Shown: positions 37,430 to 63,863, counted from the stretch's first letter. The stretch: DNA of 64,000 bases from a virus (IMGVR_UViG_3300035670_000045:62744-126743), one strand, 5' to 3'. Notes: generated by a model not told the origin, from the letters alone. Made by a program: numbers and translations.

Positions 37430-38077
37430 ATGATCCAAGGAGTTTCCTCCGATCTGTCCGTCGGGCTTCAGCCGTATGCCGACGTGGTAGTGGAGTGGGT
37501 ACCCAACCCAGGGGTACAGCTCAGCGAATTTCCAGGCGATCTGTCCGTGTGCCTGTCGATGTACACGACTATGCCTGGGTACGGTGGGTATGAGATCGCC
37601 GTGTTCACCGCACATGCCGTGAGTTCTGACCGCACGCGGGAACGGGCCGTTGTGGAGTGCTTCCCCTACGCGCACTACGAGCGGCTCGGGGCTTCCGAGG
37701 GGCTGTACCACCACTTCATGCGAACCTTGGAGCATGCCGAGCTCCTTGGGCAGGGGACGCTCAATCAGTACTTCGGGGATGAGCCTCTTCACTACGGCAC
37801 TTTCCAGAGTCCGTTTCACCGGATGCTGCAGCAGCTCCTGGAGGTGGAGGAGTACCCGTCACACCCCGTAGTTGACATCGAGGCAACGCTCGCCTCTTTC
37901 CGCGAGAACCCACTCAGGATGCTCGAGCATCTCGAGTTTCGTCATTGGCGAGGATTGGACCCGCATGGGACGTGCCCTAGCGGGTTCACACACCCTTCCC
38001 ACCTCTTTGGCCTCGAAGGGTGTGTTTGCATGACAGAGCTCGGAACGTGGAACCGTACCTTGTGGGGAGACATGTGA
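37430..38077 (+). CDS. Cys/His-tail family member 1
   Basis: CPSGFTHPSHLFGLEGCVC. Confidence 0.7.
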   Translation: MIQGVSSDLSVGLQPYADVVVEWVPNPGVQLSEFPGDLSVCLSMYTTMPGYGGYEIAVFTAHAVSSDRTRERAVVECFPYAHYERLGASEGLYHHFMRTLEHAELLGQGTLNQYFGDEPLHYGTFQSPFHRMLQQLLEVEEYPSHPVVDIEATLASFRENPLRMLEHLEFRHWRGLDPHGTCPSGFTHPSHLFGLEGCVCMTELGTWNRTLWGDM

Positions 38078-38661
38078 TGCGCATCCCCTACGACATGTTC
38101 AACGCCGTCTGCCACGAGTTCTTCCAGCGTAAGGTGCCCTACTTCTCCCCAAGTGTGGCAGACAACGCGGAGGATCTGGTCCTGTGCAGTATCCAACGGT
38201 TCAAGCGAAGTTCCGTTCTCTTGCAGATGTACGTCCAGATCGAGCCGGGGTGGAAGGACGGTACCTTCAATGTGGCCACCGGCTCTTACATCTGGGTACT
38301 GCCAAGAGACTATGGGCAGGGTGTGGCCGCATCTATCGCTAAACACTCCCGAAGGCTGGACCGCGGGAGGTATCGTCCAGCGCAAAACACACTAACGTTC
38401 ATCTCCCGTCCGTACCCGAGGTTGGTGGCCGCTTGCGTGTACCGGGATTGGTTGAAGTTCGATCAGCTTCTTTGGGCTGCCGTAACTCGACCGTCCCACG
38501 TGATCGATCTTACGTGGTCCGACAGGCCGTCTCACGTGTACCGCGAGGGTTGCCCGGAAGGACTCCTGCACCCGGCGCATTACGAGCGTGGTGGGTGTCT
38601 CTGCTCCACTTCGATGGACAGTGTTGCCCGGGTTTGCTGGGACCTGGAGGACTTTCCGTGA
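38077..38661 (+). CDS. Cys/His-tail family member 2
   Basis: CPEGLLHPAHYERGGCLC. Confidence 0.7.
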   Translation: MRIPYDMFNAVCHEFFQRKVPYFSPSVADNAEDLVLCSIQRFKRSSVLLQMYVQIEPGWKDGTFNVATGSYIWVLPRDYGQGVAASIAKHSRRLDRGRYRPAQNTLTFISRPYPRLVAACVYRDWLKFDQLLWAAVTRPSHVIDLTWSDRPSHVYREGCPEGLLHPAHYERGGCLCSTSMDSVARVCWDLEDFP

Positions 38662-39305
38662 ACACGATAGATAGCGCATGCCAGTTACGGCACCGGTCGG
38701 AGTCGGACGAGCGGTACGCTCAGTGGCTGGCCGGCCTACAGGCGTTCTCTTTCGAATTCTCTGAGGCGCCTGCTGCCAGTAGTCACCCCGCCATCGGGCA
38801 GTACGTGTACAGGCCCGTGCGTGTTGTCACCGCAGGTACACACCTCCCCTCGGTCATGGTGTTCGCCGTCGACATCCTACGGTTCTCGCGCAAGTCACGT
38901 GCAGGCACTTTCCACGGGCACTACCTCGTTGCATCCGTACTCAGTGCTGCGCTGCTGCCACCGCACGTGATTCTTCACGCGGAAATCCTCTACGAGAGTC
39001 GGAGGCCGTTCGCGAAGACCCAGAAGGTCAAGAGCAAGTACCGGGAGCTCATCAAGTACCTGAGCCGACTACCTTGGGAAGCCCACAAGGTCTCCGTGTC
39101 GGAGGAGTGTTACATCCAACGGGCATACGCGGCTAAGATCTACGTACCCGGTGTGCCCGGAGGCGAAGACGTGCGCACTTCCGGCCCCTGCCGTACTGGT
39201 GTTACGCACCCGTACCACTTCAACGCGCTCGGGGTCTGCCTGTGTGGGGTGGACACTTCCGAGACGCTGCACGGTCCGATTCACGCGGCATGGGGGGTAC
39301 ATTGA
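38658..39305 (+). CDS. Cys/His-tail family member 3
   Basis: CRTGVTHPYHFNALGVCLC. Confidence 0.7.
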   Translation: MNTIDSACQLRHRSESDERYAQWLAGLQAFSFEFSEAPAASSHPAIGQYVYRPVRVVTAGTHLPSVMVFAVDILRFSRKSRAGTFHGHYLVASVLSAALLPPHVILHAEILYESRRPFAKTQKVKSKYRELIKYLSRLPWEAHKVSVSEECYIQRAYAAKIYVPGVPGGEDVRTSGPCRTGVTHPYHFNALGVCLCGVDTSETLHGPIHAAWGVH

Positions 39306-39979
39306 TCCCGGTGATAGGAGAGCGTCCGTTGGAGCTCAGACCAATCGAGAAGCACGAGTTCATTCAGAAGGTACACAGCGCAATTGGGCCCATGTACCGC
39401 AGGAGCGGTACGTGGCCCTCCTACGTGTCCTCGATACGGGTCAACGCAGAATGCGCGTACGTGCAGTGGGTCCGTATGGAGGAGTACCACTGGTTGATCG
39501 CGTGTGACGTGTTCAGCGACCATGACGAGGGGTTCATTCACGTGTGGTACCTAGGGGCGGTACCACGTGCTCTCGAGTACGAGCCAGTCGAGGGGGTGCC
39601 CCAGCTGTCCGATAGGCCCGCCATACTCACCACGGCGGTAGTTCGCGGCAGGAAGATGTGTCCGACGGCCGACTCTATTCGAGAGGTCTTCAGTGACTTC
39701 CGAGCTATCGTAGATGGGATCGTCGCGGGCTACTCCGTGTATGACTTGGAGGGCGCATCGGGCAAGCCCAGCACCCTGATCGCCTCCAGGTTCCCATTCT
39801 CCCGTCGCAAGCACTTCACGCTGGGCTGGAGCGGTTCCCCGGATGCACCCACGGCGTGTAAGCGCGGCATCGCACACCCCCATCACTTCGACCATGAGGG
39901 GAGGTGCAGATGCTACTCCAACGCTCTCTGGCATGTGCCTCTATTCATGTCGTGGATGAAAGAAAGCGTGGTGGACTAG
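39302..39979 (+). CDS. Cys/His-tail family member 4
   Basis: CKRGIAHPHHFDHEGRCRC...HVPLFMSW; start uncertain. Confidence 0.7.
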   Translation: MIPVIGERPLELRPIEKHEFIQKVHSAIGPMYRRSGTWPSYVSSIRVNAECAYVQWVRMEEYHWLIACDVFSDHDEGFIHVWYLGAVPRALEYEPVEGVPQLSDRPAILTTAVVRGRKMCPTADSIREVFSDFRAIVDGIVAGYSVYDLEGASGKPSTLIASRFPFSRRKHFTLGWSGSPDAPTACKRGIAHPHHFDHEGRCRCYSNALWHVPLFMSWMKESVVD

Positions 39980-40639
39980 ATGACTCCCTTCCGGTTTGAC
40001 CCATCAGAGCTGGGGCCTCTCGTACAGTCACTCCGTCAGGCAGCAATGTCTGTTGCCCTCGATTACGGCGCACGCGTAGTACTTCCGAAGGCCAGTCTAA
40101 GCGCTTCCACCTCCCCCACGGTGTACGACGTCTACGGGAAGTCGTTCCGATGGTCGATCGTGTACGAGCGGGTACTCCACTGGGAAGGTGACCCCAACTC
40201 GTTCGACGAGCACCTGTACCTGCTCACGCTTCCGCGGGGTCAAGTCCCCACGACTGTTTGCATGTACGCGAAGGCGTCGTTCTCGTGTGCCCTCATCCCA
40301 CCGCCTGACGCCTACGTGCCGTTGCTCCGGAAGGTGTTCTCCGACATCCATCGGTTCGATTCTGACCCCGTGGCTATCCACGCGCTGGACACGGCCAGGT
40401 CCCCGATTTCTCCCATCGGGGTCAACACCCGCAGCGGTTGGAGTGCTGTGGACTACATCGACTTCGTTCGCCGTATGAAGTTGACCAGTTCCAGTATGGT
40501 TCGTGTTGAGTGTACGCAAGGCATCGTGCACCCTCACCACTTCGATGGCTTCGGGAACTGCAGGTGCAGCCGGTATGCCGCCCATCACCGGCCTTTGCTG
40601 CGGCAATGGGGCAGGAGGTTTCTTTCCGTTGATCCGTGA
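39980..40639 (+). CDS. Cys/His-tail family member 5
   Basis: CTQGIVHPHHFDGFGNCRC...HRPLLRQW. Confidence 0.75.
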   Translation: MTPFRFDPSELGPLVQSLRQAAMSVALDYGARVVLPKASLSASTSPTVYDVYGKSFRWSIVYERVLHWEGDPNSFDEHLYLLTLPRGQVPTTVCMYAKASFSCALIPPPDAYVPLLRKVFSDIHRFDSDPVAIHALDTARSPISPIGVNTRSGWSAVDYIDFVRRMKLTSSSMVRVECTQGIVHPHHFDGFGNCRCSRYAAHHRPLLRQWGRRFLSVDP

Positions 40640-41249
40640 ACAAGAACGCCTACGCGCGCTGGACGTCGTGCGCGAGGTACTTTCTCGTACTTCAATCCCT
40701 GACAACATCTTCTGCCGCGTAGCGGACACCGTTACACGCCCATCGGATTACTCCGTAGAGCTGCTCACGGTGTACGGGCACCAGTACCGTTGGGTAGTAG
40801 AGTACTCTCCGTCTGGAAGGTTTGGGATCCCATCCGGCGTGCTACATCTAAACGCACAGGCGGCCTGTACGGGTTCTGCGTGGGGGGATCCGCCCAACCA
40901 TGTGATCTCTCTCGACAAGTACTCCTCCTACTCCCAGAAGTTGGATGGTACTGACGGGGAGTTGTCCGTCGAAGTAGTGCGCGCCGTACTCCGCTTGGTG
41001 TTTCTCCTTGAGGAGGATGAGTCGCGCATCTACGCCCCGCCTTGGACGGTGGAGGGTACCGACGTTACTTTCCATGGGGCTAACGGCACGGGTGCCGGGT
41101 GGGGGGCGGTAAGCCCTCCCCCTCGTCGTGGGGGGAGTTGTCTCTGTGGCGTACTTCACCCCCATCACTTTGACGTGTTTGGCGGGTGTCGGTGCTCGTT
41201 GGACGCCCTGATGCATTTGCCTCTCTTGCGGCTGTGGGGGGTAGCATGA
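40629..41249 (+). CDS. Cys/His-tail family member 6
   Basis: CLCGVLHPHHFDVFGGCRC...HLPLLRLW; AGGAGG before TTG. Confidence 0.75.
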   Translation: MIREQERLRALDVVREVLSRTSIPDNIFCRVADTVTRPSDYSVELLTVYGHQYRWVVEYSPSGRFGIPSGVLHLNAQAACTGSAWGDPPNHVISLDKYSSYSQKLDGTDGELSVEVVRAVLRLVFLLEEDESRIYAPPWTVEGTDVTFHGANGTGAGWGAVSPPPRRGGSCLCGVLHPHHFDVFGGCRCSLDALMHLPLLRLWGVA

Positions 41250-41851
41250 GGAATCGAGGATGGGACCAGGCTCTCTACCTCGAGGTTCGAGAGTTCATTC
41301 TGGACGCGGTGTGGTGCCAGTTGGCTTCTACACTCACTCCTGTGGCCTACCGCACAGTGTTGAGCGTGAGGAGAGGGCCCGAAGGCGGCTGGCTTGTCCT
41401 CCGTGTCTTCGGGAAGCTGTACACCTGGGGTCTCCTGTACTCCGCAAGTTTGGGTAGGGACATGTTTCGTTGGGAAGCTACCCCTGCCCACTGGGCGGAT
41501 GACGACCCTCCCGCCCCGATCACTCCGTGGTACAGCGCCCAGAGGAGCACTGCGCCAGGTCACTCGCGCGTAGCCGCCGCCCAGGCCGCAGTGCGTGATC
41601 TGCTCGCGGATAGGGCTGACCTCGATGGGGATGTGATGGTGGTTTACTTCCGGAGCTACGACAACTCGGACTCCGCTTCCTTACGTGGGCCGGGGTGGGA
41701 TGCCCTGCGGTTCGACGGTCGCCGGGTAAGCCCGATGCGACCTTGTGCGAAGGGCATCGTGCACCCTCACCACTTCGACCGGTACGGGGCATGCCGGTGT
41801 GCTTGTAGCGCCTCGCACCATGTCCCGCTCCTTGAGGCGTGGGACTTCTGA
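41246..41851 (+). CDS. Cys/His-tail family member 7
   Basis: CAKGIVHPHHFDRYGACRC...HVPLLEAW. Confidence 0.75.
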   Translation: MRNRGWDQALYLEVREFILDAVWCQLASTLTPVAYRTVLSVRRGPEGGWLVLRVFGKLYTWGLLYSASLGRDMFRWEATPAHWADDDPPAPITPWYSAQRSTAPGHSRVAAAQAAVRDLLADRADLDGDVMVVYFRSYDNSDSASLRGPGWDALRFDGRRVSPMRPCAKGIVHPHHFDRYGACRCACSASHHVPLLEAWDF

Positions 41852-41868
41852 CCTTGGAGGTCGGGCCT

Positions 41869-42540
41869 ATGCATGATTCATCAGAGCGTGTGCAGGAGTT
41901 CGTGGTTTCCCACGTGACGCAGACCATGCGCGGGGTCATGTACTCCGTGGTTTTGCCGTACATTCCCCACACTCACAAGGTATTGGGGGATGCGCGCGTA
42001 GTGCTGGGCATCTTCTGCTCCGAGTTCCGTTGGAGCATCACGCACCACATGCGCCACATCGCTCGATCAGTGGGGGACCGCCTCCCATCTCCTATCGTCA
42101 TGCACAGTTTTGGGCTATGGGTCACGTCCAACGCTTCGGTAGAGTCGGGCGTACCTGATGACTACCCGAGCCCCATGTTTGGGACGGCCGTATTTGCATC
42201 AAGTCTGGCACCTATCGACCCATGGGTCATTGGGTTGGACATACTTCTCGACTTCATCGTGGAGTGCGAGCTCGATCCAAGTCACATCCACACACTGGAC
42301 GGTGCGCAGGGCGTTGCCCACCTTGATCGGGGCCAACCCAACTTGGAGGTAGTCCGTCCGGCAAACTCCTTCAGTGGATGGGATGCCCGGACGTACGGGT
42401 TTGGCGTCCCATTCCCACAAGAGCCCCCGTGCGCGCTCGGGGTGACCCACCCTCACCATTTCGACCGTGCAGGGAACTGCCGGTGCCCCCCATGTGCCAC
42501 CAAACATCAACCCCTACTCCGAAACTGGGTGCGACTTTGA
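41869..42540 (+). CDS. Cys/His-tail family member 8
   Basis: CALGVTHPHHFDRAGNCRC...HQPLLRNW. Confidence 0.75.
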   Translation: MHDSSERVQEFVVSHVTQTMRGVMYSVVLPYIPHTHKVLGDARVVLGIFCSEFRWSITHHMRHIARSVGDRLPSPIVMHSFGLWVTSNASVESGVPDDYPSPMFGTAVFASSLAPIDPWVIGLDILLDFIVECELDPSHIHTLDGAQGVAHLDRGQPNLEVVRPANSFSGWDARTYGFGVPFPQEPPCALGVTHPHHFDRAGNCRCPPCATKHQPLLRNWVRL

Positions 42541-42543
42541 GCT

Positions 42544-43173
42544 ATGTACTTGCGGTCTGAGCTCGACACGGATGAAGAGGAGCAGGCGTACGCAGCCCTC
42601 GAAGAGGTGATGTCTCTTCCGGAGTTCGGTCATCTGAACTGCAGATGGCCAGGACCTTGCGGTGCTCCGGGGGAGGTGCACCTTCTACGCGTGTACACTA
42701 ACTTGTACGTTTGGGATGTGTTCTACGCCAAACCCAGTCCGGACGTTTCCCGTGTGGTGACGTTGCACTGCGGAATCCAGCTCGGTACACGGCACCCATC
42801 GAAGGGGCCTGGCCCAGTTGTGTTTGACATCTGGATGGAGGACCTGCCCGGCTACCATAGCCTCACGTACATCAGCGCGCTGGCTGGCATGTTGCGTGCC
42901 GTGTTACGGCTCATTGTGCGTCTGGAGTCCGACGTTCGCGCCCTCTACTGGCGGGTACCTCGGGTAGACGGCACCTGGGCGAACTACCGGGGGCGCGATC
43001 TCGTGTCAGCCCACTGGGAGCGTGAGGTGTTCGGGGCTGATCTTCGGCGGCGGTGTGCGCAGGGTGTAGTCCACCCCGACCACTTCGATGTGTCGGGTCA
43101 TTGCAGGTGTTCCCCCGATGTGGATCTTCATCTGCCCTTGATGCGGGCGTGGGGGTTACGTTCCCATGTATAA
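42544..43173 (+). CDS. Cys/His-tail family member 9
   Basis: CAQGVVHPDHFDVSGHCRC...HLPLMRAW. Confidence 0.75.
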   Translation: MYLRSELDTDEEEQAYAALEEVMSLPEFGHLNCRWPGPCGAPGEVHLLRVYTNLYVWDVFYAKPSPDVSRVVTLHCGIQLGTRHPSKGPGPVVFDIWMEDLPGYHSLTYISALAGMLRAVLRLIVRLESDVRALYWRVPRVDGTWANYRGRDLVSAHWEREVFGADLRRRCAQGVVHPDHFDVSGHCRCSPDVDLHLPLMRAWGLRSHV

Positions 43174-43831
43174 GAGGTCGGAGCTGCCCATCACCCCCAA
43201 CGAGGCCCGTACGCTGGAGCGGCAGATCCGGGAACAGGTCACATCCCAAGTCTTGGGCTCGAGTACGGCGGGTCGGCCAGGCGTTCATGTGGTTGGCGTC
43301 AATTCGGACCGCCTCTCTCCCAAGTCGATTGTGTGGATACAAGGCGCACTCTTCCTGTGGTCGATCTCCTACGAACGATGTGAGGAGCTATGGGTCGGCC
43401 CTGGGGAGGACGTCTTCGGGGGGAAGTTCGAGATGCTGGCGTTGGGTGCCAACGCCCTGCGGGAATCACAAGACGGCGTTGCGTTGGTGAGTGTCCGAGT
43501 CGCTGTCGCACAAGACCAAGTAGGCGCGGCAGTCCTTGGCCCTGAGCTGAGCAAGCTTGTCCACCTCATTTCTCGTTGCGAGCTTGCGCCCGAGCTCATT
43601 CACGAGCTCGAGCAGTCATGGGGAGGCTCCACCGCGCTTAACGAGGCCCCGTTCCTCCAAAGTCAGTTCGAGGACGGGTGGGCAGCACACGCTCCTTCAG
43701 AGAGGAAAGAGCCATGTCGTTGCTCCCGCGGGATAGTGCACCCGTTTCACTTCGACATGCGGGGTCACTGCCGATGTGACTCCAACGCCACGTTCCACAA
43801 GCCACTTCTTCGTCACTGGCTCCGCACTTAG
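43166..43831 (+). CDS. Cys/His-tail family member 10
   Basis: CSRGIVHPFHFDMRGHCRC...HKPLLRHW. Confidence 0.75.
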   Translation: MYKRSELPITPNEARTLERQIREQVTSQVLGSSTAGRPGVHVVGVNSDRLSPKSIVWIQGALFLWSISYERCEELWVGPGEDVFGGKFEMLALGANALRESQDGVALVSVRVAVAQDQVGAAVLGPELSKLVHLISRCELAPELIHELEQSWGGSTALNEAPFLQSQFEDGWAAHAPSERKEPCRCSRGIVHPFHFDMRGHCRCDSNATFHKPLLRHWLRT

Positions 43832-43841
43832 GAGGTGCACC

Positions 43842-44474
43842 TTGTCGTACCGCACCTTGACCCCATTACCCACAAGTGTCGGCAGCCGTATTGCGGAAGA
43901 GCTCATGGAGGGTGTACAGGCGAGGGTGGGTGAGTTCATCCCCTCTTTCTTCTTCAGTGAGTACCGCGTGTCTATCGAGGTCAGCGGTCGCCACTTTCTG
44001 TGGTCCATTGTGTACGAGATGTGGTGCTCGGATGAGGATACGCACCCTGGCATCGGGGACGGCATCCTGGAGCTACGCGCCTGGCCTTGGGGGTACAGCG
44101 GCAGTACCCCAGCGGTAGTGGCACGCGTGCCCGTCCCAATTCGAGATGGTCACCGTGACTTCTCGCGGTTGGACAGGATCTGTAGCGCTCTGACACGGTG
44201 CGATGCCGACCCGCGGAACATCCACCAGTACGAGGGTACGGGGCGGTACCCCCTGTTAGTGTCAGAGATTCCGGGCATCCTCCGTACTGCCCCCGGGTGG
44301 CGAGCCACGGGGAAACCTCCGAGCCCACCCACCCCTTGTCCGAAGGGTGTAGCCCACCCTTTTCACTACGACTGCTTCGGTTCGTGTCGGTGTGCTTCCG
44401 ATGTCGTCATCCACTACCCGCTGCTCCAGCAGTGGCTAAACCCCACCGTGGCACCCCCACGTGGCTCTCCGTAG
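43842..44474 (+). CDS. Cys/His-tail family member 11
   Basis: CPKGVAHPFHYDCFGSCRC...HYPLLQQW; AGGAGG before TTG. Confidence 0.75.
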   Translation: MSYRTLTPLPTSVGSRIAEELMEGVQARVGEFIPSFFFSEYRVSIEVSGRHFLWSIVYEMWCSDEDTHPGIGDGILELRAWPWGYSGSTPAVVARVPVPIRDGHRDFSRLDRICSALTRCDADPRNIHQYEGTGRYPLLVSEIPGILRTAPGWRATGKPPSPPTPCPKGVAHPFHYDCFGSCRCASDVVIHYPLLQQWLNPTVAPPRGSP

Positions 44475-45060
44475 TCTGACCCCTCTGCCCCGCAGTGTTC
44501 GCAGGTACATCGCGGATGTTATCGAGAGGGGCCTCCCATCGACGGTGTGGGGGAGGTATTTCGTCAACCCCCTCATCTCTTCCGAGAATCGCGCGGGAGT
44601 AGAAATCTCGAGTCGGTACTTCCTCTGGTCCATCCTGTACGAGATGTGGTGCTCGGATGGGGACACCCACCCCGGGGTTGGTGATGGCATTCTGAAGCTG
44701 TGGGCCTGGCCGTGGGGGTGCGCACGCACTACCCCCGCTCTCGTCGCAACTGTTCCCGTGAATAGCTCCCGTGACTTTTCCGGGCTGCCCCACCTATGCG
44801 ACGTCCTCCTCGCCTGTGAAGAGAATCCGTGCCACATCCACAAGTTTGAAAGCGCACATCTGCACTCTACTAGGGTGCAGAGTATCCACGGCATACCGGT
44901 GGTGCACTCGGGGTGGCAAGCTTCCGGCAAAGTCGGGGTGCCGCCCTTCGCTTGCCCCCACGGGCTTGTCCACCCCTACCACTATGACTTCTTCGGCCGG
45001 TGCCGTTGTGAGTCGAACGCCGTCATTCACTACCCACTGCTTGTCCAGTGGGGTTTCTGA
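44461..45060 (+). CDS. Cys/His-tail family member 12 (close paralog of 11)
   Basis: CPHGLVHPYHYDFFGRCRC...HYPLLVQW. Confidence 0.75.
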   Translation: MALRSLTPLPRSVRRYIADVIERGLPSTVWGRYFVNPLISSENRAGVEISSRYFLWSILYEMWCSDGDTHPGVGDGILKLWAWPWGCARTTPALVATVPVNSSRDFSGLPHLCDVLLACEENPCHIHKFESAHLHSTRVQSIHGIPVVHSGWQASGKVGVPPFACPHGLVHPYHYDFFGRCRCESNAVIHYPLLVQWGF

Positions 45061-46474: not shown

Positions 46475-46542
46475 GAGTACGGGAACACCCACCGGGGCTG
46501 TGAGTACTTCCGCACGCCGGGGTACTCACAGCCTTTCCTTTT
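46468..46542 (+). promoter_or_regulatory. GGGATAAG motif followed by strong hairpin and T-tract (attenuator or sRNA)
   Basis: GGCTGTGAGTAC/GTACTCACAGCC 12-bp stem then TTTCCTTTT. Confidence 0.55.
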
Positions 46543-46553
46543 AGGAGAGTCAC

Positions 46554-47069
46554 ATGGCCAAGTCGAACTTCGGCAACATCGTCCCCAATCCGCATCCGAA
46601 GACCGTTCCAGTCATGAAGTTGCCCGTGTCGTTCAGGCACATCTGTGAGGTCTTCCCAGAGCTCTCCGACATGTACGTGGGGAACTTCATCGACTGGGCC
46701 GGCGTTGGGCAGTACAACGGGCTGTACCATTCCTACCGCTGTGTGTCCGGGGCCAAGCTCACGTTGCTCGACGCGTTCCGTGCGGTCGAGCGGATCGCCA
46801 AGGAGACCGACGAGCTCCGCGCATCGTCCGGGGAGATTGCGTTGCGGTTTCACACGCTCTTGGTGGACATCCCAAAGCAGATTCTCGAGGAGTACGAGCA
46901 GCGGTGCCAGAAGCGCATCGAGTGGGAGGTGGTGGAGGACATGCGCTCGTTTGCCAGTGAGGAGTTTCACGGGCGCGGGTGTAGCAAGAGCACGTGCTCC
47001 GAGGATTGTCTGTGCGCCCCCTGCCGCGCTCGAGTTGCGCTGCAGCGTATGGCGGAGAACGTGCCGTGA
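46554..47069 (+). CDS. hypothetical protein with Cys-rich C-terminus
   Basis: AGGAG RBS; CSKSTCSEDCLCAPC. Confidence 0.65.
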   Translation: MAKSNFGNIVPNPHPKTVPVMKLPVSFRHICEVFPELSDMYVGNFIDWAGVGQYNGLYHSYRCVSGAKLTLLDAFRAVERIAKETDELRASSGEIALRFHTLLVDIPKQILEEYEQRCQKRIEWEVVEDMRSFASEEFHGRGCSKSTCSEDCLCAPCRARVALQRMAENVP

Positions 47070-54601: not shown

Positions 54602-54825
54602 GCTCCACTGAGGTCCCCAGTGTGGCTCTGTCCGCCGGCGGCGGGGAATTCCCGGTGCTCGCGGCGGGGGACCGTGTGCACGCGATCGGTACCCCACACA
54701 ACCAAGTCGGTGAAGTGATCTCTGTTCTGGGCCCCGAGTACATCGGGTGGGCGTACGTGCGGTGGCCGGATTGTACGGACTGGGCGCTGGCGTCCACTCT
54801 TCGGGTGGTGAGCTATGCCCGTTAA
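54598..54825 (+). CDS. small SH3/KOW-like protein
   Basis: GDRV...VGEVISV...AYVRW...LRVV. Confidence 0.45.
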   Translation: MSSTEVPSVALSAGGGEFPVLAAGDRVHAIGTPHNQVGEVISVLGPEYIGWAYVRWPDCTDWALASTLRVVSYAR

Positions 54826-55576
54826 GCTCGTCGAAAGCAATTCTGACGGAGGGTGGTGCCCCACCGGCTGGTTCCCGTTGCCTTCCATTTCGGTCAGGCG
54901 GCCTGTCTACGGAGATGACGCGATGTGGGCGCGTCGTATGTGGGATGGCTCGTACTTCGTGCTGAAGATCCAGAAGACCAGTCGAATCCGTGCGGTGTTC
55001 AAGTGTGTCCTCGTACGCATCGATCTTCGGGAAACCACACAGCAAGCGCTGAATCGTGCGCTGGCACGCCTTGGCTCCGGCTTCCGTTTGCGGGGCAAGC
55101 AGCTTTACACGCATTTTCGGAATGAGCTGGCGTTTCCCCGTCTGAGTGACGTGCGGCTCAAGTGCCTGGAGGCGCTGGCTCAGGACGGCCGCGGGGCCGT
55201 ATTGCATACGGAGGTCGGTAGAGTCGCAGGTCGGGTTTTGGCGAAGTGCGAGCGCGCAGCGTACGGGCTCGAGCACGACCCCGTTCGTCTCGAGCGCGAG
55301 CTCGACAAGCCGTGGACCTACCATGCGACCATTTGGACAGGCACCAACCGTGAGTACGGCGCTGGCGCAGGCGACCAGATGTTTCAAGTCCCACTTGCCA
55401 CGCGTACGTGTAGAGCGGGTCTTCTGTTTCCAGAGCATTACTGGGCCAACGGGGGGTGCAAGTGTGGCGACGCTGTGCACCGTCAGACTCTGCTGTGGTG
55501 GGGAATCCCGACGGACGATCAGTACAGGGAAGTCCCACCCCCTTCCATTCGGGATGTTGTTCAATGGGACGTCTAA
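54815..55576 (+). CDS. Cys/His-tail family member 16
   Basis: CRAGLLFPEHYWANGGCKCGDAVH; RIDLRET. Confidence 0.7.
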   Translation: MPVKLVESNSDGGWCPTGWFPLPSISVRRPVYGDDAMWARRMWDGSYFVLKIQKTSRIRAVFKCVLVRIDLRETTQQALNRALARLGSGFRLRGKQLYTHFRNELAFPRLSDVRLKCLEALAQDGRGAVLHTEVGRVAGRVLAKCERAAYGLEHDPVRLERELDKPWTYHATIWTGTNREYGAGAGDQMFQVPLATRTCRAGLLFPEHYWANGGCKCGDAVHRQTLLWWGIPTDDQYREVPPPSIRDVVQWDV

Positions 55577-57054: not shown

Positions 57055-57507
57055 ATGAGCAGACACAGTAATTACGCCACACAGAACATCCCCCCGTGCA
57101 CGGGATGTGGCGGACCCAACAGTTATTGGCACACGGCACACTACTTGTGCCCGAGGTGCTGGTTCCTCCTCTGTCGTGAGCGTCGCGTCCATTTGGAGGA
57201 CGCGACGGACCAAATGGTGTCGCTGTACGGTGTAACGTGCTCGGGGCACGTGGGCAGCGGACCGTTCTTCCTTGCGTCCCGAGACATCGTGGGTGCGCGC
57301 ACAGAGTGGCTTCACGGGGAGATGTTCCCGTTCGGCGAGGGGCAGCAGCGCTTCGTGGGGATGAGGTGGGAGCGCGACGTGCTCAAAGCCTTCCGCTTCC
57401 GTACGGAGGAGGAGGCGCTTCTCGCTGCCAAGTCCCCTGTCCCCATGTACCTCGATGGGTACGTGGACTACAAAGTGCGGGTGATCCCGCACGCGGCGGT
57501 GAAGTGA
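57055..57507 (+). CDS. Zn-finger hypothetical protein
   Basis: CTGC...CPRC. Confidence 0.55.
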   Translation: MSRHSNYATQNIPPCTGCGGPNSYWHTAHYLCPRCWFLLCRERRVHLEDATDQMVSLYGVTCSGHVGSGPFFLASRDIVGARTEWLHGEMFPFGEGQQRFVGMRWERDVLKAFRFRTEEEALLAAKSPVPMYLDGYVDYKVRVIPHAAVK

Positions 57508-58142
57508 GTCTATTACCCCCGTGGGGTGGGTCGCTCTTTCAGTCGGACCCGTGGAGGTCCTACCCCCCTATGCACCCCCCGTTCCTCCACGTGTGGCACC
57601 GGTCCATCTCGTACTACAGCACACCCATTGGGGAGCACCTCGTGGCGGACATCCGCAGGTTCCCAGGCGCGATTCCTGAGTACCTCGGCGTGTTGACCTA
57701 CGTGAATCTGCAGGTCGTCACGGAGGACTACTTGGCGGGGATCGCTCACCGGTACGGGTACAACTACACGTACCACTCCCCCATCCTTACCCCCACGCAG
57801 CATCACTGGCCGTACTGCCCGCTGACGACACTCGCCGCATTCGCGGCCATGACCAACGACCACCCGCAGGTGGAGAGGATCGCATTGCCGAGTGTGGACG
57901 CGGTGCGTGCACACCTGGAAGAAGCCGCGGATGCACTCATCATGTCCCCCATGCAGCTGGAGGACCGGGTCCGCGCTTGGTACCCAGACGGGTTCTATCC
58001 TGCACCGGAACGCATCCCGAGGCGCACATGTCCGAGGGGTGTACTGTACCCAGGGCACTACTCCATCGATGGTGGATGCCGGTGTGTAGAGCCCTTGCAT
58101 ACGCGTGCGGGTCAACAGCGTTGGGGTATCATCCTGGGATGA
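57504..58142 (+). CDS. Cys/His-tail family member 17
   Basis: CPRGVLYPGHYSIDGGCRCVEPLH. Confidence 0.7.
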   Translation: MSLLPPWGGSLFQSDPWRSYPPMHPPFLHVWHRSISYYSTPIGEHLVADIRRFPGAIPEYLGVLTYVNLQVVTEDYLAGIAHRYGYNYTYHSPILTPTQHHWPYCPLTTLAAFAAMTNDHPQVERIALPSVDAVRAHLEEAADALIMSPMQLEDRVRAWYPDGFYPAPERIPRRTCPRGVLYPGHYSIDGGCRCVEPLHTRAGQQRWGIILG

Positions 58143-58495: not shown

Positions 58496-58512
58496 GACAT
58501 GTGAGGTGATCG

Positions 58513-58824: not shown

Positions 58825-59135
58825 CCGTGAAGGACTTCGCGAGTGTGTTGTTCTCCACCGAGTCGGCGTTGCTCGTGATGGCTACCCTTCTCCTGCTCGT
58901 GTCCCACTTGTTTCATGTGCGGCTTCGGCAGTACCGGCAGTGGCAGGCCCACTGCACACATATCGAGAGGCAGATCCGGGACCTGGACCGACTCATTCAT
59001 CGACACTGGGTGCTGTACCTCACCTACCTGCACCGTGGGGAGGACAAGAAGGCGATGGCCGAGTTGGACTTTATCGAAAAATGGGAGGCGGACGTGCAAG
59101 GGCTGGAGATCGAGCTCCGCTACTGGACGAAGTGA
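58821..59135 (+). CDS. membrane-anchored hypothetical protein
   Basis: N-terminal hydrophobic helix. Confidence 0.55.
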   Translation: MTVKDFASVLFSTESALLVMATLLLLVSHLFHVRLRQYRQWQAHCTHIERQIRDLDRLIHRHWVLYLTYLHRGEDKKAMAELDFIEKWEADVQGLEIELRYWTK

Positions 59136-59929
59136 TGGGGGCGTCTCGTCATCCAAGTTTCAAACGCATCATTTCTGCTCTTCGAACATCTCCGGCAGGC
59201 CTGTCCAGGCGGATGGATTATCTACTCTCTCCCGACTGGGATCTGTTCCGTGACGGGTTCTCTCCGAGCGATGTAGCCGTCGATCCGAGTGGGAACACGT
59301 TGAGTTTGTATCCTCTCTCGAACACGGAGTGGTACGGCGTGCTGTACCACGGCAGCAAGCACACCGCCCTCTCTGGGGATTGTCATGTCCTGCGGGTTGA
59401 CTTGACCGAAGCTCACCCAACCAGGGTGCAGTCCGCTATCCGCAAGCTCGTCCAAGACAGCCTGTCAGGCCCTGAGGTCGTGGACGCGGCGAAAGCCGTT
59501 TCCGCTGGAGTAGTAGGGCGTGCCCTTGCCCGGAACGCCGTGGGTGCCGTCGTTCTTCACGAGCACGCATTCGCTACACTGGCGTACTTCGCTACCGGAC
59601 CTATGTACGAAGTTCTGGGGGCTGCGAGGGAATCGGCCAGGTACTTTCTCCGTAGCCCCTACAGTGTAGAGCAACTGCTCGAGCAGGTGTCCGGACGGTA
59701 CACCATGCGGGACTACGGTACGTTTCCGTACCGTAGGGACTCGCCACCGAAGTCCAGTGTGCAGGGTACGAGTGCGTGCCCTCTTGGGATCACAGCCCCC
59801 CAGCACTACTGGGTGGACGGTCAGTGCAAGTGCGGGGACGTTGTGCATTCCAGGTCAATGCAAGAGCTATGGTCCATTCAGTCCTCGGCCCAGAATCAAC
59901 GGTATGTTGTCCGGTCACCGCGCCGGTGA
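59135..59929 (+). CDS. Cys/His-tail family member 18
   Basis: CPLGITAPQHYWVDGQCKCGDVVH; RVDLTE. Confidence 0.7.
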   Translation: MGASRHPSFKRIISALRTSPAGLSRRMDYLLSPDWDLFRDGFSPSDVAVDPSGNTLSLYPLSNTEWYGVLYHGSKHTALSGDCHVLRVDLTEAHPTRVQSAIRKLVQDSLSGPEVVDAAKAVSAGVVGRALARNAVGAVVLHEHAFATLAYFATGPMYEVLGAARESARYFLRSPYSVEQLLEQVSGRYTMRDYGTFPYRRDSPPKSSVQGTSACPLGITAPQHYWVDGQCKCGDVVHSRSMQELWSIQSSAQNQRYVVRSPRR

Positions 59930-60201
59930 TCTTCACGAGGTTTGTCATGGAAAAGGATGTGGCTCGTCTCGAGTACCGGCTCATGCTGCTGGTGCTGCTG
60001 GTGTCGTACGTGTCGATCATCATCGGGCAGGCTTCATCCTGGCTCGAGTGGGGTTGTGGTTCCGTGGTGCTACTCCAGCTGACGATCGGCGTGTACGTCG
60101 TGTTGGGGGACATCCGGGACATCTGCCGCGTTTGGGTTCTGCACGAGTTGCTCCAGGAGCTGCACCGCCCTCTGTGGCAAGGTAGGTCGGCTAGTGAGTA
60201 G
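59926..60201 (+). CDS. small two-helix membrane protein
   Basis: Two hydrophobic segments. Confidence 0.45.
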   Translation: MIFTRFVMEKDVARLEYRLMLLVLLVSYVSIIIGQASSWLEWGCGSVVLLQLTIGVYVVLGDIRDICRVWVLHELLQELHRPLWQGRSASE

Positions 60202-60925
60202 CCGTATCCGGGACCGGCCCGACGCCGTCACACTTATTGACGAGTGGGGGACTATACTCCCTTCGCAGGTCACGCGCGGGTGGTCGCGCACAACTTTCGG
60301 CGATTCGTTGCCCATATACTACCGAGACGATCCTCCGGCTCCGTTGGTGGTGCTTTGCCTGCGGGAGGAGACAGCCCACGGGTTCGCTGTGGAGGTCCAC
60401 GTCGTGCCCTACATCCTCATCAACAAGGCATCCGGGGCAAGGCTTGTACGCGAGTACCAGAAGAAATGGCGGGTGGAACTGAGTAAGGATACGCAGGAGC
60501 GCGCGCTGTTCTCCCAGATGCTTCGAGAGTTCGGCAACTTTAGCGCTCACAGTCGTGTTGTGTGCGGCAAGACACTACGCGAGGCGAAGACGGCTGCGAT
60601 GGTGGAGGGGAGACGTCTGCAGGCCAACCTGGAGTGGCTTTTCACTCTTTACTGCCAACACCAGCCTTTTGTAGCGGAAGAACGCCCAGTGGCGTGCCCT
60701 GCTGGGATCATTCACCCCACTCACTTCAGCACGGGCGCAAGGTCCTGCATGTGCGGCATTTTCGAGTACGAATCAACACAGCGCAAAGTGTGGGGTGCCC
60801 CCTCGTGGGTGGGGAGGTACCGTAAGCACCTTGTCCGTACATGGAGAGAGATGCGCAAGCTGAAGGTGCTTGGTGTTGACTTTGGTAGCCGCGAGCTCGA
60901 CAAGCTCGATGATCGGAGCCCATGA
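60194..60925 (+). CDS. Cys/His-tail family member 19
   Basis: CPAGIIHPTHFSTGARSCMC. Confidence 0.7.
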   Translation: MSSRIRDRPDAVTLIDEWGTILPSQVTRGWSRTTFGDSLPIYYRDDPPAPLVVLCLREETAHGFAVEVHVVPYILINKASGARLVREYQKKWRVELSKDTQERALFSQMLREFGNFSAHSRVVCGKTLREAKTAAMVEGRRLQANLEWLFTLYCQHQPFVAEERPVACPAGIIHPTHFSTGARSCMCGIFEYESTQRKVWGAPSWVGRYRKHLVRTWREMRKLKVLGVDFGSRELDKLDDRSP

Positions 60926-61740
60926 ACCGCGACAAAAAGAACCCCCCTTCCATCGGGGAGATGCTCACCGACATTCGGGAAGAGTGGGTCACAACACCTC
61001 CTGATCTGCTGTGGCAATTGGGTCCGCCCGCTGGGGCGACGGACGAAGAGTCCAGCGGCTGGGAGTACCCCGTGTGGTTTTTCCCGTTGCAGCACCATCC
61101 TGGTGGGTTCGCGCTACTGCGGGGGTATGCTCACTCGGGCCTCACGAACGACTGGGGTGAGCCTCTTGTGCAGGCCACGTTGAGCGTGTTGTTCGTGGAC
61201 GAGGTGCACTACCTCACCGTAAAGGACGCTCTTGACCGTGCCCGCATGGAGATGACGCTCGACCACAGGTCAACTTACGGCGTCTCCATTCACCCTCGGC
61301 ACACGCGTGCACCCGTTGGGCTCACATACACCCAGCGACTTGCGCTGATGCACGCGCTGGTGAAGTACGGGCACATGGGGGAGGGACTGCTGACGACGCG
61401 TACCCATGACCTGGCGGCACTTCGGGAGCAGGTTTGTGAGAAGGTGCGTGAATGGTCTACCCCGGAGGGGCTCTACCGGTTGGACAGACAGCTCGAGCAG
61501 GCGCTCTGCCTCTCGTTGCTAGGGGGCCTGGGCCCCACGGACGTCGGTTGCCCCAATGGGGTTGTTCACCCGCTGCATTGGAGGGGGTACACCTGCCGTT
61601 GCTTGGACGTGCGCCACGCACCCGTAGCAGGCGGGTGGTGGGTGTTGCAGCCTGAGGGCAGGTGTGTGCGCCCACTGGGGGGATCGGGGTGGCGGGAGGT
61701 GCTGGACCTTCACTGCCCCGAAGTGGACTTCGTACTCTGA
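60922..61740 (+). CDS. Cys/His-tail family member 20
   Basis: CPNGVVHPLHWRGYTCRCLDVRH. Confidence 0.7.
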   Translation: MNRDKKNPPSIGEMLTDIREEWVTTPPDLLWQLGPPAGATDEESSGWEYPVWFFPLQHHPGGFALLRGYAHSGLTNDWGEPLVQATLSVLFVDEVHYLTVKDALDRARMEMTLDHRSTYGVSIHPRHTRAPVGLTYTQRLALMHALVKYGHMGEGLLTTRTHDLAALREQVCEKVREWSTPEGLYRLDRQLEQALCLSLLGGLGPTDVGCPNGVVHPLHWRGYTCRCLDVRHAPVAGGWWVLQPEGRCVRPLGGSGWREVLDLHCPEVDFVL

Positions 61741-61804
61741 CGTCTTTCCACTTTCATTGCGGGGATAAGACTCGGGGTAGTCTACCGCTACTCGAGGAGG
61801 CGAC

Positions 61805-62469: not shown

Positions 62470-62603
62470 CTCGCCGCGCCGACCGACCGATGCGTAGCCC
62501 ATTCGTCCGCGCGTGCATGTGCTACTACCTCTACAACCTGCCCCGTTCATGCTGCGTGTGCGGGCGCCAGACTGCGAAACGTACTACGGAAGAGGACACC
62601 ACA

Positions 62604-62927
62604 ATGGGCTACATGCCGTCAGGATTCGAAGACTGTGAGGCTGCGACCGAGGTAGTGGAGGAGCTGCGGCGAGCTCGAGGCCGCTTCCCCACGTTCCACT
62701 CGGCGCACGAGGGCGCTTCCATCTTGCGGGAGGAGTTCGAGGAGCTCTGGGACGTGGTGAAGCAGGGTGGGTCCAGCCCTCGCTCCGTGAAGGCCATGCG
62801 GAAGGAAGCCATCCAGGTCGCGGCTATGGCCCTCCGGTTCATCGAGGACGTGTGTGACAAGCCGGAAGTCGCGGAGGTGGGTACCCGTGCCAAGACGAGG
62901 AAGCCGCGTGGACGCCGCCCAGCCTGA
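62604..62927 (+). CDS. MazG-like nucleotide pyrophosphohydrolase
   Basis: ILREEFEELWD...MRKEAIQVAAMALRF. Confidence 0.65.
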   Translation: MGYMPSGFEDCEAATEVVEELRRARGRFPTFHSAHEGASILREEFEELWDVVKQGGSSPRSVKAMRKEAIQVAAMALRFIEDVCDKPEVAEVGTRAKTRKPRGRRPA

Positions 62928-63165
62928 CGCGCAGAAGGAAGCGCTCACGGCAGCCATCAAGAAGCTCGGTGTCGATCATCCGGAGATCGACGCCAAGCAG
63001 ATGCTGCGGGACTTCGAGGAGTTCTATGCGGAGTGCCCGCACGTGGAGGCCGCATACTCGTACATCATCCACAACGCGGAGTCGTACATGCGGAAAGAGG
63101 GGCCTGTCTCCGAGCAGATCGGGTTGACCCTCGCGGGCATGTTCACTCCGCGGTCCCGAAGGTGA
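62908..63165 (+). CDS. hypothetical protein
   Basis: GAGGA RBS. Confidence 0.5.
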   Translation: MDAAQPDAQKEALTAAIKKLGVDHPEIDAKQMLRDFEEFYAECPHVEAAYSYIIHNAESYMRKEGPVSEQIGLTLAGMFTPRSRR

Positions 63166-63863
63166 GCCCGATGGTTCGGGTCTACCAGAGCGACCAAACC
63201 GCGGAGGAGTGGGTCCAGCACTGGCAGCTCGGGTTGGTTCGGTTCCGGGGCGTCGCCATGAGTGGCACACTGCGCAGCACGCACTGTGATGTGCTTGACG
63301 TGCCTCCTGACGTTCGAGCCAAACTCCAGAACCGTGACCGTCTTGTGTGGGCGCGACCTTGGGATCTAGCCCGCTCCATCATGGGGGTCGTCGTAGTCAC
63401 GTACGAACACCCTAGCGGCGTACGTCTGTGGTACAGCAACCCTTCGGTGTCCGCGCAGGTCCCACGGGACGAGTTTTTCTACGGGTCTAACGTTGCGGGG
63501 GTGCAGGACGCTGTGCACCGGGTGCTGTATCCGGGGGATGATGCCACTTTCGAGCTCTCAAACGCCGAGTGGTTTGCAGAAGCGAACAACGCCGCTAAGG
63601 GGCGAGTGGGGCGTACTCTGCACTTGATCGGACAGTTGGAAGAGGGGGTGGAGTACTACGGGGACGAGCCCCCCGATCCGGAGGATGCCGCACGGTTTGG
63701 ATGTCCTCGCGGAATTGTCCACCCGCTGCACTACGGCGACATGTGGGCGGGGTGCCGCTGCCGTAGCAATCTTCACCTCGTACGGTTGACGGGCTGGGGT
63801 GACCCTGAGGCGAGCCGTACCTTGGTGCAACGTTCGATTCCGTATCTTCCGTTGGTGACCTGA
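63162..63863 (+). CDS. Cys/His-tail family member 21
   Basis: CPRGIVHPLHYGDMWAGCRCRSNLH. Confidence 0.7.
   Translation: MSPMVRVYQSDQTAEEWVQHWQLGLVRFRGVAMSGTLRSTHCDVLDVPPDVRAKLQNRDRLVWARPWDLARSIMGVVVVTYEHPSGVRLWYSNPSVSAQVPRDEFFYGSNVAGVQDAVHRVLYPGDDATFELSNAEWFAEANNAAKGRVGRTLHLIGQLEEGVEYYGDEPPDPEDAARFGCPRGIVHPLHYGDMWAGCRCRSNLHLVRLTGWGDPEASRTLVQRSIPYLPLVT

Follow-up and report, generated by a model that had tools for sequence, protein, structure and literature searches.

A 21-member phage gene family joining diversified N-terminal domains to a constant Cys/His module: candidate modular binder proteins

The window analysed here, a 64,000-nucleotide stretch of a viral contig, contains 21 open reading frames (ORFs) of 194 to 274 amino acids (aa), all on the plus strand between positions 37430 and 63863, which share a Cys/His motif near the C-terminus. 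When the expression C..G...P.H.{3,9}C.C was run over all six frames, 21 matches were obtained, on the plus strand throughout and extending from 37973 to 63761, while each of 50 base shuffles of the contig returned none; the count given in a preliminary description of the locus was exact. Scanning the entire 126,743-bp contig with the same expression yielded these 21 matches and no additional copy. Likewise, an HMM of the 21 tails detected no 22nd copy in any stop-to-stop frame of the contig, where the next-best frame scored E 0.004 (13.9 bits). Gene starts were set at the stop of the preceding gene; with these starts, the motif opens at residue 159-215 and leaves 14-56 residues after it. For 12 members, lengths agree with independent gene calls in public catalogues.

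Twelve of the genes form an array that runs unbroken from 37430 to 45060, with stops and starts that overlap or abut. Its first three members, m01 (215 aa, 37430..38077, motif core 37973-38029), m02 (194 aa, 38077..38661, core 38551-38604) and m03 (215 aa, 38658..39305, core 39189-39245), carry singleton N-domains and have the orthologues P0026, P0018 and P0019, respectively. They are followed by m04 (222 aa, 39311..39979, core 39857-39913), which combines an A-type tail with an N-domain that is marginally A-like (HMM E 0.049), and by the eight overlapping or abutting genes of subfamily A (m05 to m12, 199-223 aa, 39980..45060), located at 39980-40639, 40629-41249, 41246-41851, 41869-42540, 42544-43173, 43166-43831, 43842-44474 and 44461-45060. 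Three further tandem genes at 47084-49367, namely m13 (47084-47809), m14 (47806-48552) and m15 (48543-49367), encode proteins of 241-274 aa with a B-type N-domain and the module (subfamily B); a non-family gene of 171 aa (46554..47069, plus strand) lies just upstream of m13. The coordinates agree with the two tandem groups first described. The remaining six genes had been called dispersed, and all lie outside the arrays, but two of them adjoin (60194-60925 and 60922-61740). These six are m16 (253 aa, 54815..55576, subfamily B), m17 (212 aa, 57504..58142, singleton N-domain), m18 (264 aa, 59135..59929, subfamily B), m19 (243 aa, 60194..60925, singleton N-domain with a 56-aa extension past the module), m20 (272 aa, 60922..61740, singleton N-domain) and m21 (230 aa, 63171..63863, singleton N-domain). 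Because m21 is the last gene called before the end at 64000, the family could run past that point.

Alignment of the tails identified C9, G12, P16, H18, C25 and C27 as invariant in all 21 members. The first His of the HP pair is substituted in three, as had been noticed earlier, by Phe in the gene at 54815 (m16), Tyr at 57504 (m17) and Ala at 59135 (m18); C-x-C follows the invariant His after 5-7 residues, not after the 4-6 given previously. A later His is kept in 18 of the 21 tails and is missing from those encoded at 37430, 38077 and 60194. No 19-residue hydrophobicity window exceeded 1.69.

Profile and sequence searches of Pfam, PHROGs, NCBIfam and the PDB sequences returned no match to the tail, in line with the initial impression that the motif is not a named domain. 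In Pfam, no two of the 21 tails matched a common family (RINGv reached E 0.062 in one), and the 10 full-length proteins of the 21 that were scanned matched zero families at E ≤1. Homologues were nevertheless present elsewhere. When the six frames of the contig were searched with a profile (A4) made from 11 stand-alone proteins of foreign origin, 19 of the 21 tails scored E<0.01, m15 being the best (E 1e-12); m03 scored weakly (E 0.06), m01 was not recovered, and no non-family frame fell below E 1. The reciprocal search, in which the profile was built from window tails only, recovered foreign proteins with a best E of 3.7e-12. We conclude that the tail is a genuine and autonomous domain that has not been named.

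Across 65 sequences from the window and from foreign proteins, the only invariant residues are C193, H202, C209 and C211 (m14 numbering), with G207, W223 and G224 conserved in at least 90%. Because only these Cys and His residues are invariant, the module is probably a CHCC zinc knuckle of the form C-x8-H-x5-7-C-x-C. A zinc ribbon, with two CxxC/CxxH knuckles and two beta-hairpins, was considered and rejected: here C and H stand eight apart and are followed by C-x-C, no CxxC pair was found in the module alignments, and there was no Pfam zinc-ribbon match.

Outside this clade of phages, the module occurs in 255 protein clusters of 31-161 aa, all "hypothetical" or unnamed. The stand-alone forms are about 70 aa long and acidic, with a median pI of 5.4 and a net charge of -3 across 117 proteins, properties that suit binding to protein better than binding to DNA; one of them, encountered in BFVD, is UniProt A0A6J5R738 ("uncharacterized protein, uncultured Caudovirales phage"). 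The module is also borne by 30 longer proteins. In half of these (15/30) it lies C-terminal to a "CWHGH" domain, and in nine it accompanies a B-type domain, which is N-terminal in six and C-terminal in three; six other partner groups occur once apiece, one of them represented by the close pair P0093/P0094. Among IMG/VR loci, eight encode CWHGH plus module and one encodes B-type plus module, and the B-type domain was found without the module in 4 of 41 pattern-matched loci. With linkage defined as BLASTP E 1e-3 or better on the non-module part, m13, m14, m15, m16 and m18 cluster with nine foreign proteins (P0023, P0069, P0074, P0076, P0082, P0083, P0085, P0088 and P0095), while the other 16 members do not; relatives of subfamily B number just 7 in 5.8 billion proteins. 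The earlier view of the tail as a discrete and constant module was borne out by its occurrence alone and in other fusions.

Five of five near-complete phage records searched (118-392 kb) contain the module, with one match in four of them and two adjoining matches, the second weak, in the fifth. A tblastn search of 50,697 GenBank phage records with two stand-alone homologues gave no match. Among the phages searched, the 21-copy state is confined to one clade, which consists of uncultured large phages of about 175-185 kb. In a tree of tails, the 21 window sequences fall on one side of a branch (SH-aLRT 89, unstarred, 43 columns) and 69 others on the opposite side, a topology that would allow all 21 tails one common origin.

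Although the window tails and the stand-alone family share the invariant C, H, C and C as well as W-G, the former are a divergent branch of the latter and not typical members. They occupy long branches in the tree, lack the extra N-terminal strand region (FGTLHPDGS.T.VR.IKQSD) of the stand-alone proteins, and have C..G and HP in place of stand-alone residues; HYR.DG, C.C.D and M..WGY, which are at least 90% conserved in the stand-alone family, are mostly absent. Non-ligand residues conserved at this level in the stand-alone proteins are P, I, Y, R, D, D, M, W, G and Y, from which the window tails retain only P (shifted to HP), the aromatic after His, and W/G, with R, D, D and M not conserved. 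Since most of these residues (Y, R, D, D, M, Y) have been lost, the window tails may not have the partner of the stand-alone proteins, or any single partner, in common. Moreover, tail types follow the N-domain subfamilies (HPHHFD...PLL..W in A, HYW..G.CKC.D.VH in B), a match that could mean co-evolution within each protein and not a common hub.

At least 10 groups of N-domains can be told apart, with no detectable sequence similarity between them, and hhalign probabilities were ≤4.8% for all 45 pairs of groups. Their description as far more variable than the tail holds, with the qualification that m05-m12 and m13-m16 plus m18 are two recognizable subfamilies; the eight members outside these show no detectable similarity to them or to one another. 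A recent duplicate pair is seen in m11 and m12 (N-domain BLAST E about 1e-49). Between sister phages, the N-domains also change much faster than the tails: in 10 of 18 pairings that were full length with at least 150 aligned N-domain residues, N-domain identity was at least 10 points below tail identity. For m04, m07 and m10 and their sister proteins the values were 77-80% versus 100%, and for P0017, a mosaic relative of m19, they were 37% versus 86%.

Substitutions between sister-phage proteins cluster in patches, and contigs from other runs carry blocks of about 111-121 nt in the N-domains of m01, m09 and m10 that are equal in length but diverged. Gene content varies as well. Contigs from three runs in three studies skip m12, and in one run a 2,596-nt joint deletes m13, m14 and most of m15. 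In P0010, the C-terminal 32 residues of the 171-aa neighbour protein are fused in frame to the m15 tail, and P0041, catalogued as a relative of m18, departs from m18 within the motif and reads into the next ORF. A search for a diversity-generating retroelement found no RVT_1 match in the 126.7-kb contig (68% complete), and no near-identical repeat pairs to the diverged patches were found in 35000-64000.

Structural models of m14 and m05 were examined. The AF2 model of m14 reached a pLDDT of 81.2 and a pTM of 0.78 over both domains, the latter of which may mean that the tail packs against its own N-domain; its tail blocks scored 84-93, compared with 46-60 for the blocks covering residues 161-190, and a low-confidence stretch separates N-domain and tail in both models. 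Confidence was low for m05 (pLDDT 65.5). The modelled N-domains show an antiparallel sheet flanked by helices, as do small alpha+beta binder folds such as PsiB, the T4 MotA C-terminal domain, the TriTu immunity protein and the FP domain. In VIA-align searches, however, the best Z scores, 5.6 and 6.4, did not reach the 7-8 that is usually noise for this tool, and all four of these folds scored under that level and lack sequence similarity; for PsiB and the m05 model, 113 of 137 residues were aligned (Z 6.4, rmsd 3.9). Because the matches lie at noise level, the word "binder" is without structural support. Eight PDB entries appeared in the top-50 lists of both model types, A and B, which hints weakly at one general alpha+beta arrangement shared by the N-domains.

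We tentatively propose, with a probability of about 0.42, that the family arose by lineage-specific expansion of soluble, modular proteins acting as binders or effectors, in which a zinc-stabilized, constant docking module is tethered to diversifying domains. Each protein would consist of a variable alpha+beta N-domain (about 150-200 aa), a linker corresponding to the 20-30 or so residues that the models place at low confidence, and the constant module (about 45 aa), predicted to form a short hairpin and then a helix. Zinc binding is suggested by the invariance of four Cys/His residues and by a tail model that is compact and confident, and the metal would serve solely to keep the module in shape. 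Its surface would act as a docking or anchoring element that takes varied N-domains to one kind of partner or one place in the infected cell, while the N-domains would bear specificity and gain diversity as genes duplicate, are replaced in patches, are deleted or, occasionally, enter new fusions. Binders engaged in an arms race, whether for host takeover or against host defences, would be expected to show such a pattern; like zinc binding, the docking, the protein (as opposed to nucleic-acid) nature of the partners and a role in host conflict are inferred.

A variable target-binding domain joined to a short constant C-terminal module is also the layout of F-box, SOCS-box and poxvirus ankyrin/PRANC adaptors, which form multigene families with quick turnover and whose modules are helical and metal-free. 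To our knowledge, the ubiquitin-ligase scaffolds on which those modules dock are absent from bacteria. No F-box, SOCS-box or PRANC profile in Pfam matched the 10 full-length proteins scanned or any of the 21 tails, and the resemblance is one of architecture only. A stronger form of the docking proposal, in which the module is a phage-specific hub-docking domain, the counterpart of an F-box or PRANC tail, and the 21 N-domains each capture a different host protein, seems unlikely. If it were true, the hub would be a single conserved machine of the infected cell and might be a host protease, the RNA polymerase or the fused polymerase of the phage, captured host proteins such as a defence component would be degraded, sequestered or re-targeted, and the 70-aa forms of other phages would simply block the hub.

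Polymorphic toxin cassettes, which have a constant N-terminal trafficking part, a variable C-terminal toxin and an adjacent immunity gene, were also considered and set aside. The polarity here is reversed, the genes of the 12-gene array abut with no interleaved small genes, and no toxin family was matched in Pfam by the 10 of 21 members scanned.

Rather than docking, the tail could staple each protein together as a metal-stabilized cap or folding nucleus on its own N-domain, without a partner, so that the family would comprise 21 old paralogs, each with a function of its own; the tail would be the one part unable to change without unfolding. The conservation of just four putative ligands and Gly/Trp-type positions across the superfamily would suit this reading, as would the tracking of N-domain subfamilies by tail types, the pTM of the m14 model, a tail tree compatible with one origin and, as a weak hint, the PDB entries recurring for both model types. 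We nonetheless regard it as rather unlikely, since the module exists alone in the 255 clusters with strongly conserved surface residues, is found both before and after the B-type domain as well as joined to unrelated partners, and is parted from the N-domain by the low-confidence stretch, while the B-type domain exists without it. Duplicates in decay, that is, transient neutral products of tandem duplication that keep the motif by chance or through recent origin, receive very little credence from us. Third-position GC (GC3) is indeed lower in the family than in its neighbours (0.716 versus 0.805, p 1.5e-5), which could equally signal relaxed constraint, members are lost in relatives, and P0041 runs out of the motif; yet 21 of 21 frames are open, and the duplications are old, because inter-copy DNA identity at the motif is just 60-73%. 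In 20 of 21 full-length sister-phage pairings the tails are 82-100% identical (P0016, 74%), values that together with the six invariant motif residues indicate purifying selection.

The phage encodes a multisubunit-type RNA polymerase (fused beta-beta') in one 2,998-aa ORF, and the module could be a DNA or RNA zinc finger in a battery of transcription or nucleoid factors for that enzyme. Tail pI exceeds 8 in 14 of 21 members and a basic residue occupies C-[RK]-C in 16 of 21. A precedent comes from Bacillus phage G, for which section 3.4.3 of Iyer et al. 2021 (PMC7824862) describes a lineage-specific expansion of about 35 zinc ribbons that the authors guessed to be specific factors or DNA binders. 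As that section presents it, phage G is likewise a large phage that has multiplied a small Cys-based metal-binding domain into tens of paralogs; its ribbons have two CxxC knuckles, however, whereas the module here is C-x8-H...C-x-C and forms the tail of two-domain proteins of 200-270 aa. We find such regulators distinctly unlikely: the stand-alone homologues are acidic, no DNA-binding finger family was matched and no CxxC knuckle pair is present, N-domain pI ranges from 4.9 to 9.8 without a trend, and gain and loss of members among near-identical strains would be unusual for core regulators. Architecture alone, with its short constant module tethered to variable effector-like domains, would also suit a tag that loads proteins into the capsid or tail for injection as early effectors. 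This role is highly unlikely, as the family sits among genes for replication and accessory functions (SNF2 helicase, exonuclease, RadC) with the structural block far away, no link was found between the tail and any head protein, and stand-alone 70-aa forms would be tags without cargo.

In 52 viral loci, no gene recurred consistently next to the module. Within the window, a GC-rich hairpin followed by TTTCCTTTT (46489..46545, plus strand) precedes the 171-aa gene and is terminator-like as judged from its sequence. Comparable T-tracts occur near positions ~36342 and ~57038, and all of these sites together would divide the region into three co-directional units.

A search of all six frames with the Cys/His motif returned 21 copies, all on the + strand between 37973 and 63761, and none elsewhere in the contig or in 50 shuffles. 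Each copy lies near the C-terminus of an ORF of 194 to 274 amino acids (aa), in agreement with the number and size given in the preliminary description; gene starts were placed at the stop of the preceding gene, and gene calls in the public catalogue have the same lengths for 12 members. All 21 proteins (m01 to m21, in window order) share one architecture, a variable N-terminal domain followed by a tail of about 45 aa, with no variation among the 21 aligned tails at the residues C, G, P, H, C, and C. The layout was as described for an unbroken array of 12 abutting or overlapping genes (37430-45060) and for three tandem genes (47084-49367), but the six members said to be dispersed (54815-63863) include two that are adjacent. 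Third-position G+C is 0.716 in the family, compared with 0.813 in 66 non-family contig genes (p 3e-9) and with 0.805 in 12 non-family genes interspersed in the same region (p 1.5e-5), and is lowest, at 0.685, in the tails. Directly after the 12-gene array, positions 45071-46474 (frame open from 44771) encode a protein of about 470 to 570 aa that matched no family apart from a sub-threshold hit to HTH_17; in several sequencing runs this gene has loose ends and contains a joint of 474 nt.

The source belongs to an uncultured lineage of tailed phages. The window (G+C about 62%) covers the final 64 kb of an IMG/VR virus record of 126,743 bp, for which CheckV estimated 68% completeness. The contig encodes a large terminase, no more than 27% identical to that of any of 50,697 GenBank phage records, and, upstream in the contig, a DnaB-like helicase with a homing-endonuclease domain (contig 2074-4533, − strand). 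A 2,998-aa single ORF outside the window (contig 17607-26603; L010:607-9603 in locus numbering) encodes a fused beta-beta' multisubunit-type RNA polymerase, with Rpb2 domain 6, Rpb1 domains 2 and 5, and a LAGLIDADG intein, and a 1,314-aa SNF2-type helicase (window 20276-24220) is likewise split by an intein with a LAGLIDADG domain; the genome therefore has at least three insertions of an intein or endonuclease. Interspersed among the family genes are a RadC-like JAB protein (50074-50673, E 4e-14), a DnaQ-like exonuclease (53793-54356, PHROG 192, E 4.5e-20), and a DUF6527 protein (57977-58495, E 3e-11). Near-identical array DNA was found in 16 runs from 7 studies (word share 0.26 to 0.97; one run may be the source sample), covering subsurface, aquatic, wastewater, soil, and activated-sludge metagenomes. 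Contigs of one metatranscriptomic library match a large part of the array (likeness about 90%), although DNA can occur in such libraries and the contigs do not in themselves show a transcript.

The tail is named by none of the libraries searched, which bears out the earlier statement that the motif is not a recognised domain. Pfam gave no family for 10 of the 21 full-length proteins, the 21 tails, 10 foreign homologues, or the partner domains described below; NCBIfam gave none for 4 of the 21 members and six other proteins, and PDB sequences gave none at E ≤10 with a profile of 11 foreign stand-alone module proteins (A4). In PHROGs there was no relevant match, the sole one being an unrelated family of unknown function on the N-terminal part of P0078, a protein catalogued from another sample. 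No description of the motif or family was found in full-text literature, which is weak evidence of absence, as the motif cannot be searched for as such. A profile HMM of the 21 tails, a check proposed in the preliminary description, matched only 32 of 1.84 billion representative proteins at E 1e-3 or better. By inspection and alignment, these are 21 near-orthologues from sister phages, the 281-aa protein P0023, and ten proteins of 57 to 92 aa that comprise little beyond the module itself.

A profile of the small stand-alone proteins widened the family considerably, finding 52 IMG/VR loci, 255 protein clusters (31 to 161 aa), and 30 longer proteins. This profile includes no window sequence and still recovered 19 of 21 window tails at E<0.01, with no further match in the contig; the case for homology of the tails does not, therefore, rest on circular reasoning. 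In an alignment of 65 sequences, only C193, H202, C209, and C211 (m14 numbering) are invariant, with G207 and a W-G pair nearly so; the later His noted in the preliminary description is often missing from stand-alone proteins. In an AlphaFold model of m14, the tail (pLDDT 84 to 93) turns at HP-x-H and then forms a short hairpin, with C-x-C at its end, followed by a helix. We infer a structural zinc site from the four invariant Cys/His residues on a compact 45-residue unit, a pattern typical of such sites. Relatives were not obtained by megablast of window 37000-61900 against GenBank phages, by tblastn searches of those phages with two stand-alone homologues (at E 1e-3 and again at E 1), by IMG/VR pattern scans with two subfamily alignments (A2 and A3) and P0023, or by a metagenome scan with m05 in a set from which records very near the genome of the window may be absent.

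Outside this genome the module is autonomous. Stand-alone proteins (n=117) have a median length of 71 aa, a median pI of 5.4, and a net charge of −3; besides the ligands, at least 90% of them share P, I, Y, R, D, D, M, W, G, and Y. Half of the longer proteins (15 of 30: P0066-P0068, P0071-P0073, P0075, P0079-P0081, P0084, P0087, P0089, P0090, and P0092) carry an unnamed domain of about 140 aa ahead of the module, here called CWHGH for its conserved 'AVCWHGH..FM', which is followed by 'AC.C' and always precedes the module in these data. Nine others carry the N-terminal domain of m13-m16 and m18 (B-type), placed before the module in six and after it in three, while the other six represent five to six further partner groups (P0070, P0077, P0078, P0086, P0091, and P0093/P0094, a close pair counted as one group). 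Among the IMG/VR loci, eight encode CWHGH with the module (L019, L022, L031-L033, L038, L049, and L056) and one encodes the B-type domain with it; in a pattern scan, the B-type domain occurred without the module in 4 of 41 loci. As the two occur separately and in both orders, the module and the B-type domain are independent evolutionary units, freely combined by phages. The partner domains had no annotated PHROG match, and no gene family recurs as a neighbour of the module across the 52 viral loci, among which the largest cluster was an antisense artefact. Five near-complete phage records (118 to 392 kb) all contain the module, four with one match and one with two adjoining matches, the second weak; the 21-fold expansion is peculiar to the present clade.

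The N-terminal domains are far more diverse. BLASTP without motif and tail linked m05 to m12 (A-type) with one another and m13-m16 with m18, and nothing else; profile searches gave the same grouping, with m04 marginal (E 0.049). In profile-profile comparison of ten N-domain groups, all 45 pairs scored probabilities of 4.8% or less, and at least ten kinds of N-domain are therefore present at the sequence level. The AlphaFold models of m14 (65-row alignment; mean pLDDT 81.2, pTM 0.78) and m05 (mean pLDDT 65.5) both show a sheet-plus-helices domain, then a low-confidence stretch, then the tail; in m14, blocks spanning residues 161-190 have pLDDT 46 to 60. With the full-length model, Foldseek found no match to m14 at E 1e-3 or better in PDB and BFVD. 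ESM Atlas gave nothing. Best Z scores in the wide VIA-align search were 5.6 for m14 and 6.4 for m05, the latter to PsiB (113 residues aligned, rmsd 3.9), both below the noise level of 7 to 8 for this tool. Eight PDB entries are common to the two top-50 lists, a weak hint that the modelled A-type and B-type domains may share a general arrangement. Two family-wide characters were rejected: a membrane or secreted nature, as none of the proteins contains a hydrophobic segment like that of a membrane helix, and acidic DNA mimicry as a family trait, as N-domain pI spans 4.9 to 9.8.

Motif copies are 60 to 73% identical at the DNA level, and the duplications are therefore old. In a tree of 43 tail columns, one branch separates the 21 window tails from 69 foreign modules (SH-aLRT 89, unstarred), a topology compatible with a single origin of the window tails; these have long end branches, and those of B-type members do not group with foreign B-type fusions. 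Constraint on the two parts is asymmetric: compared with sister-phage proteins, N-domains are 63 to 100% identical and tails 82 to 100% (74% in P0016), and the N-domain substitutions cluster in patches. A mosaic relative of m19, P0017, shows 37% identity to it in the N-domain and 86% in the tail plus extension. The repertoire also turns over between strains. When contigs of three other studies were aligned at ≥80% likeness, joints of 616, 621, and 624 nt, with sides of 96 to 255 letters, skipped m12 in three runs, and a single 2,596-nt joint skipped m13, m14, and most of m15; joints at such likeness can stem from repeats or other organisms, but the m12 joint is the same one in all three runs. 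Blocks of about 111 to 121 nt, equal in length but diverged, lie within the m01, m09, and m10 N-domains in contigs of other studies. Stretches that these contigs left uncovered were not counted as evidence. In P0010, the last 32 residues of a neighbouring 171-aa protein are in frame with the m15 tail, which would be a natural new fusion unless the gene call is partial. P0041 tracks m18 up to a point inside the motif, changes frame, and continues into the next ORF (59776-60201), which in the window lies in a different frame from m18, overlaps its end, and encodes a product with two long hydrophobic stretches. A diversity-generating retroelement was not indicated, as no reverse transcriptase was found in the 68% complete contig and no template repeat in 35000-64000.

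We tentatively favor, at a rough probability of 0.42, a modular-binder model. The constant module, stabilised by zinc and held on a flexible tether, would serve as a docking or anchoring element, the diversifying N-domains would be the specificity parts, and the whole family would form an accessory battery deployed in conflict with the host. The main alternative, in which the module acts purely as a structural staple and lacks its own partner, is rather unlikely but draws on three observations: tail types track N-domain subfamilies, window tails have lost surface residues conserved among the stand-alone proteins, and the pTM of the model is high. An uncontrolled complex prediction of m14 residues 1-165 with its own tail (186-248) and Zn scored 0.27, 0.32, and 0.00, and favors neither reading.

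A multiplied family of small zinc-ribbon proteins, of a kind known in giant phages, occurs in phage G, and nucleic-acid binding is proposed for it (PMC7824862). Nucleic-acid-binding regulators of this sort seem improbable for the present family and are a poor fit to the acidic stand-alone proteins. There is little in the data to favor the tail as a tag for virion cargo, which we consider quite improbable, and little to favor neutral decay of the array, which is very improbable.

Batteries of fast-evolving paralogs are common in large phages, and their roles are almost entirely obscure. The present array offers a handle that other paralog arrays lack, as its constant part can be isolated as a small, probably zinc-stabilised 45-aa domain with hundreds of relatives, stand-alone forms, and at least eight other partner groups outside the clade. 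A single partner, if found, would explain both the 21 genes and an unnamed family in wastewater, sludge, aquatic, and subsurface phages. What is new is this unnamed domain family, which has hundreds of members and combines freely with other unnamed domains placed before or after it, together with direct evidence that natural strains diverge patchwise and gain and lose members; at least three domain families (the module, B-type, and CWHGH) are new to databases. Should the tails prove partnerless, the array would still be a record of accessory genes being gained, lost, replaced in patches, and joined into chimeras at the strain level.

Within the region, a GC-rich hairpin followed by TTTCCTTTT occurs at about 36342, 46535, and 57038, in each case intergenic and on the + strand, and the latter two sites immediately precede a start codon. 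Apart from the copies at these three sites, TTCCTTTT is absent from the + strand of the 126.7-kb contig. Judged by their hairpin and T-tract, they are probably terminators or unit boundaries; if terminators, they would split the region into three co-directional units, with m01-m12 in 36454-46474, m13-m16 in 46554-56987, and m17-m21 from 57055 to the end. A 21-nt inverted repeat (36341-36361 and 36426-36446; 95% complementary, arms 64 nt apart) sits within the 322-nt gap that precedes the gene at 36454.
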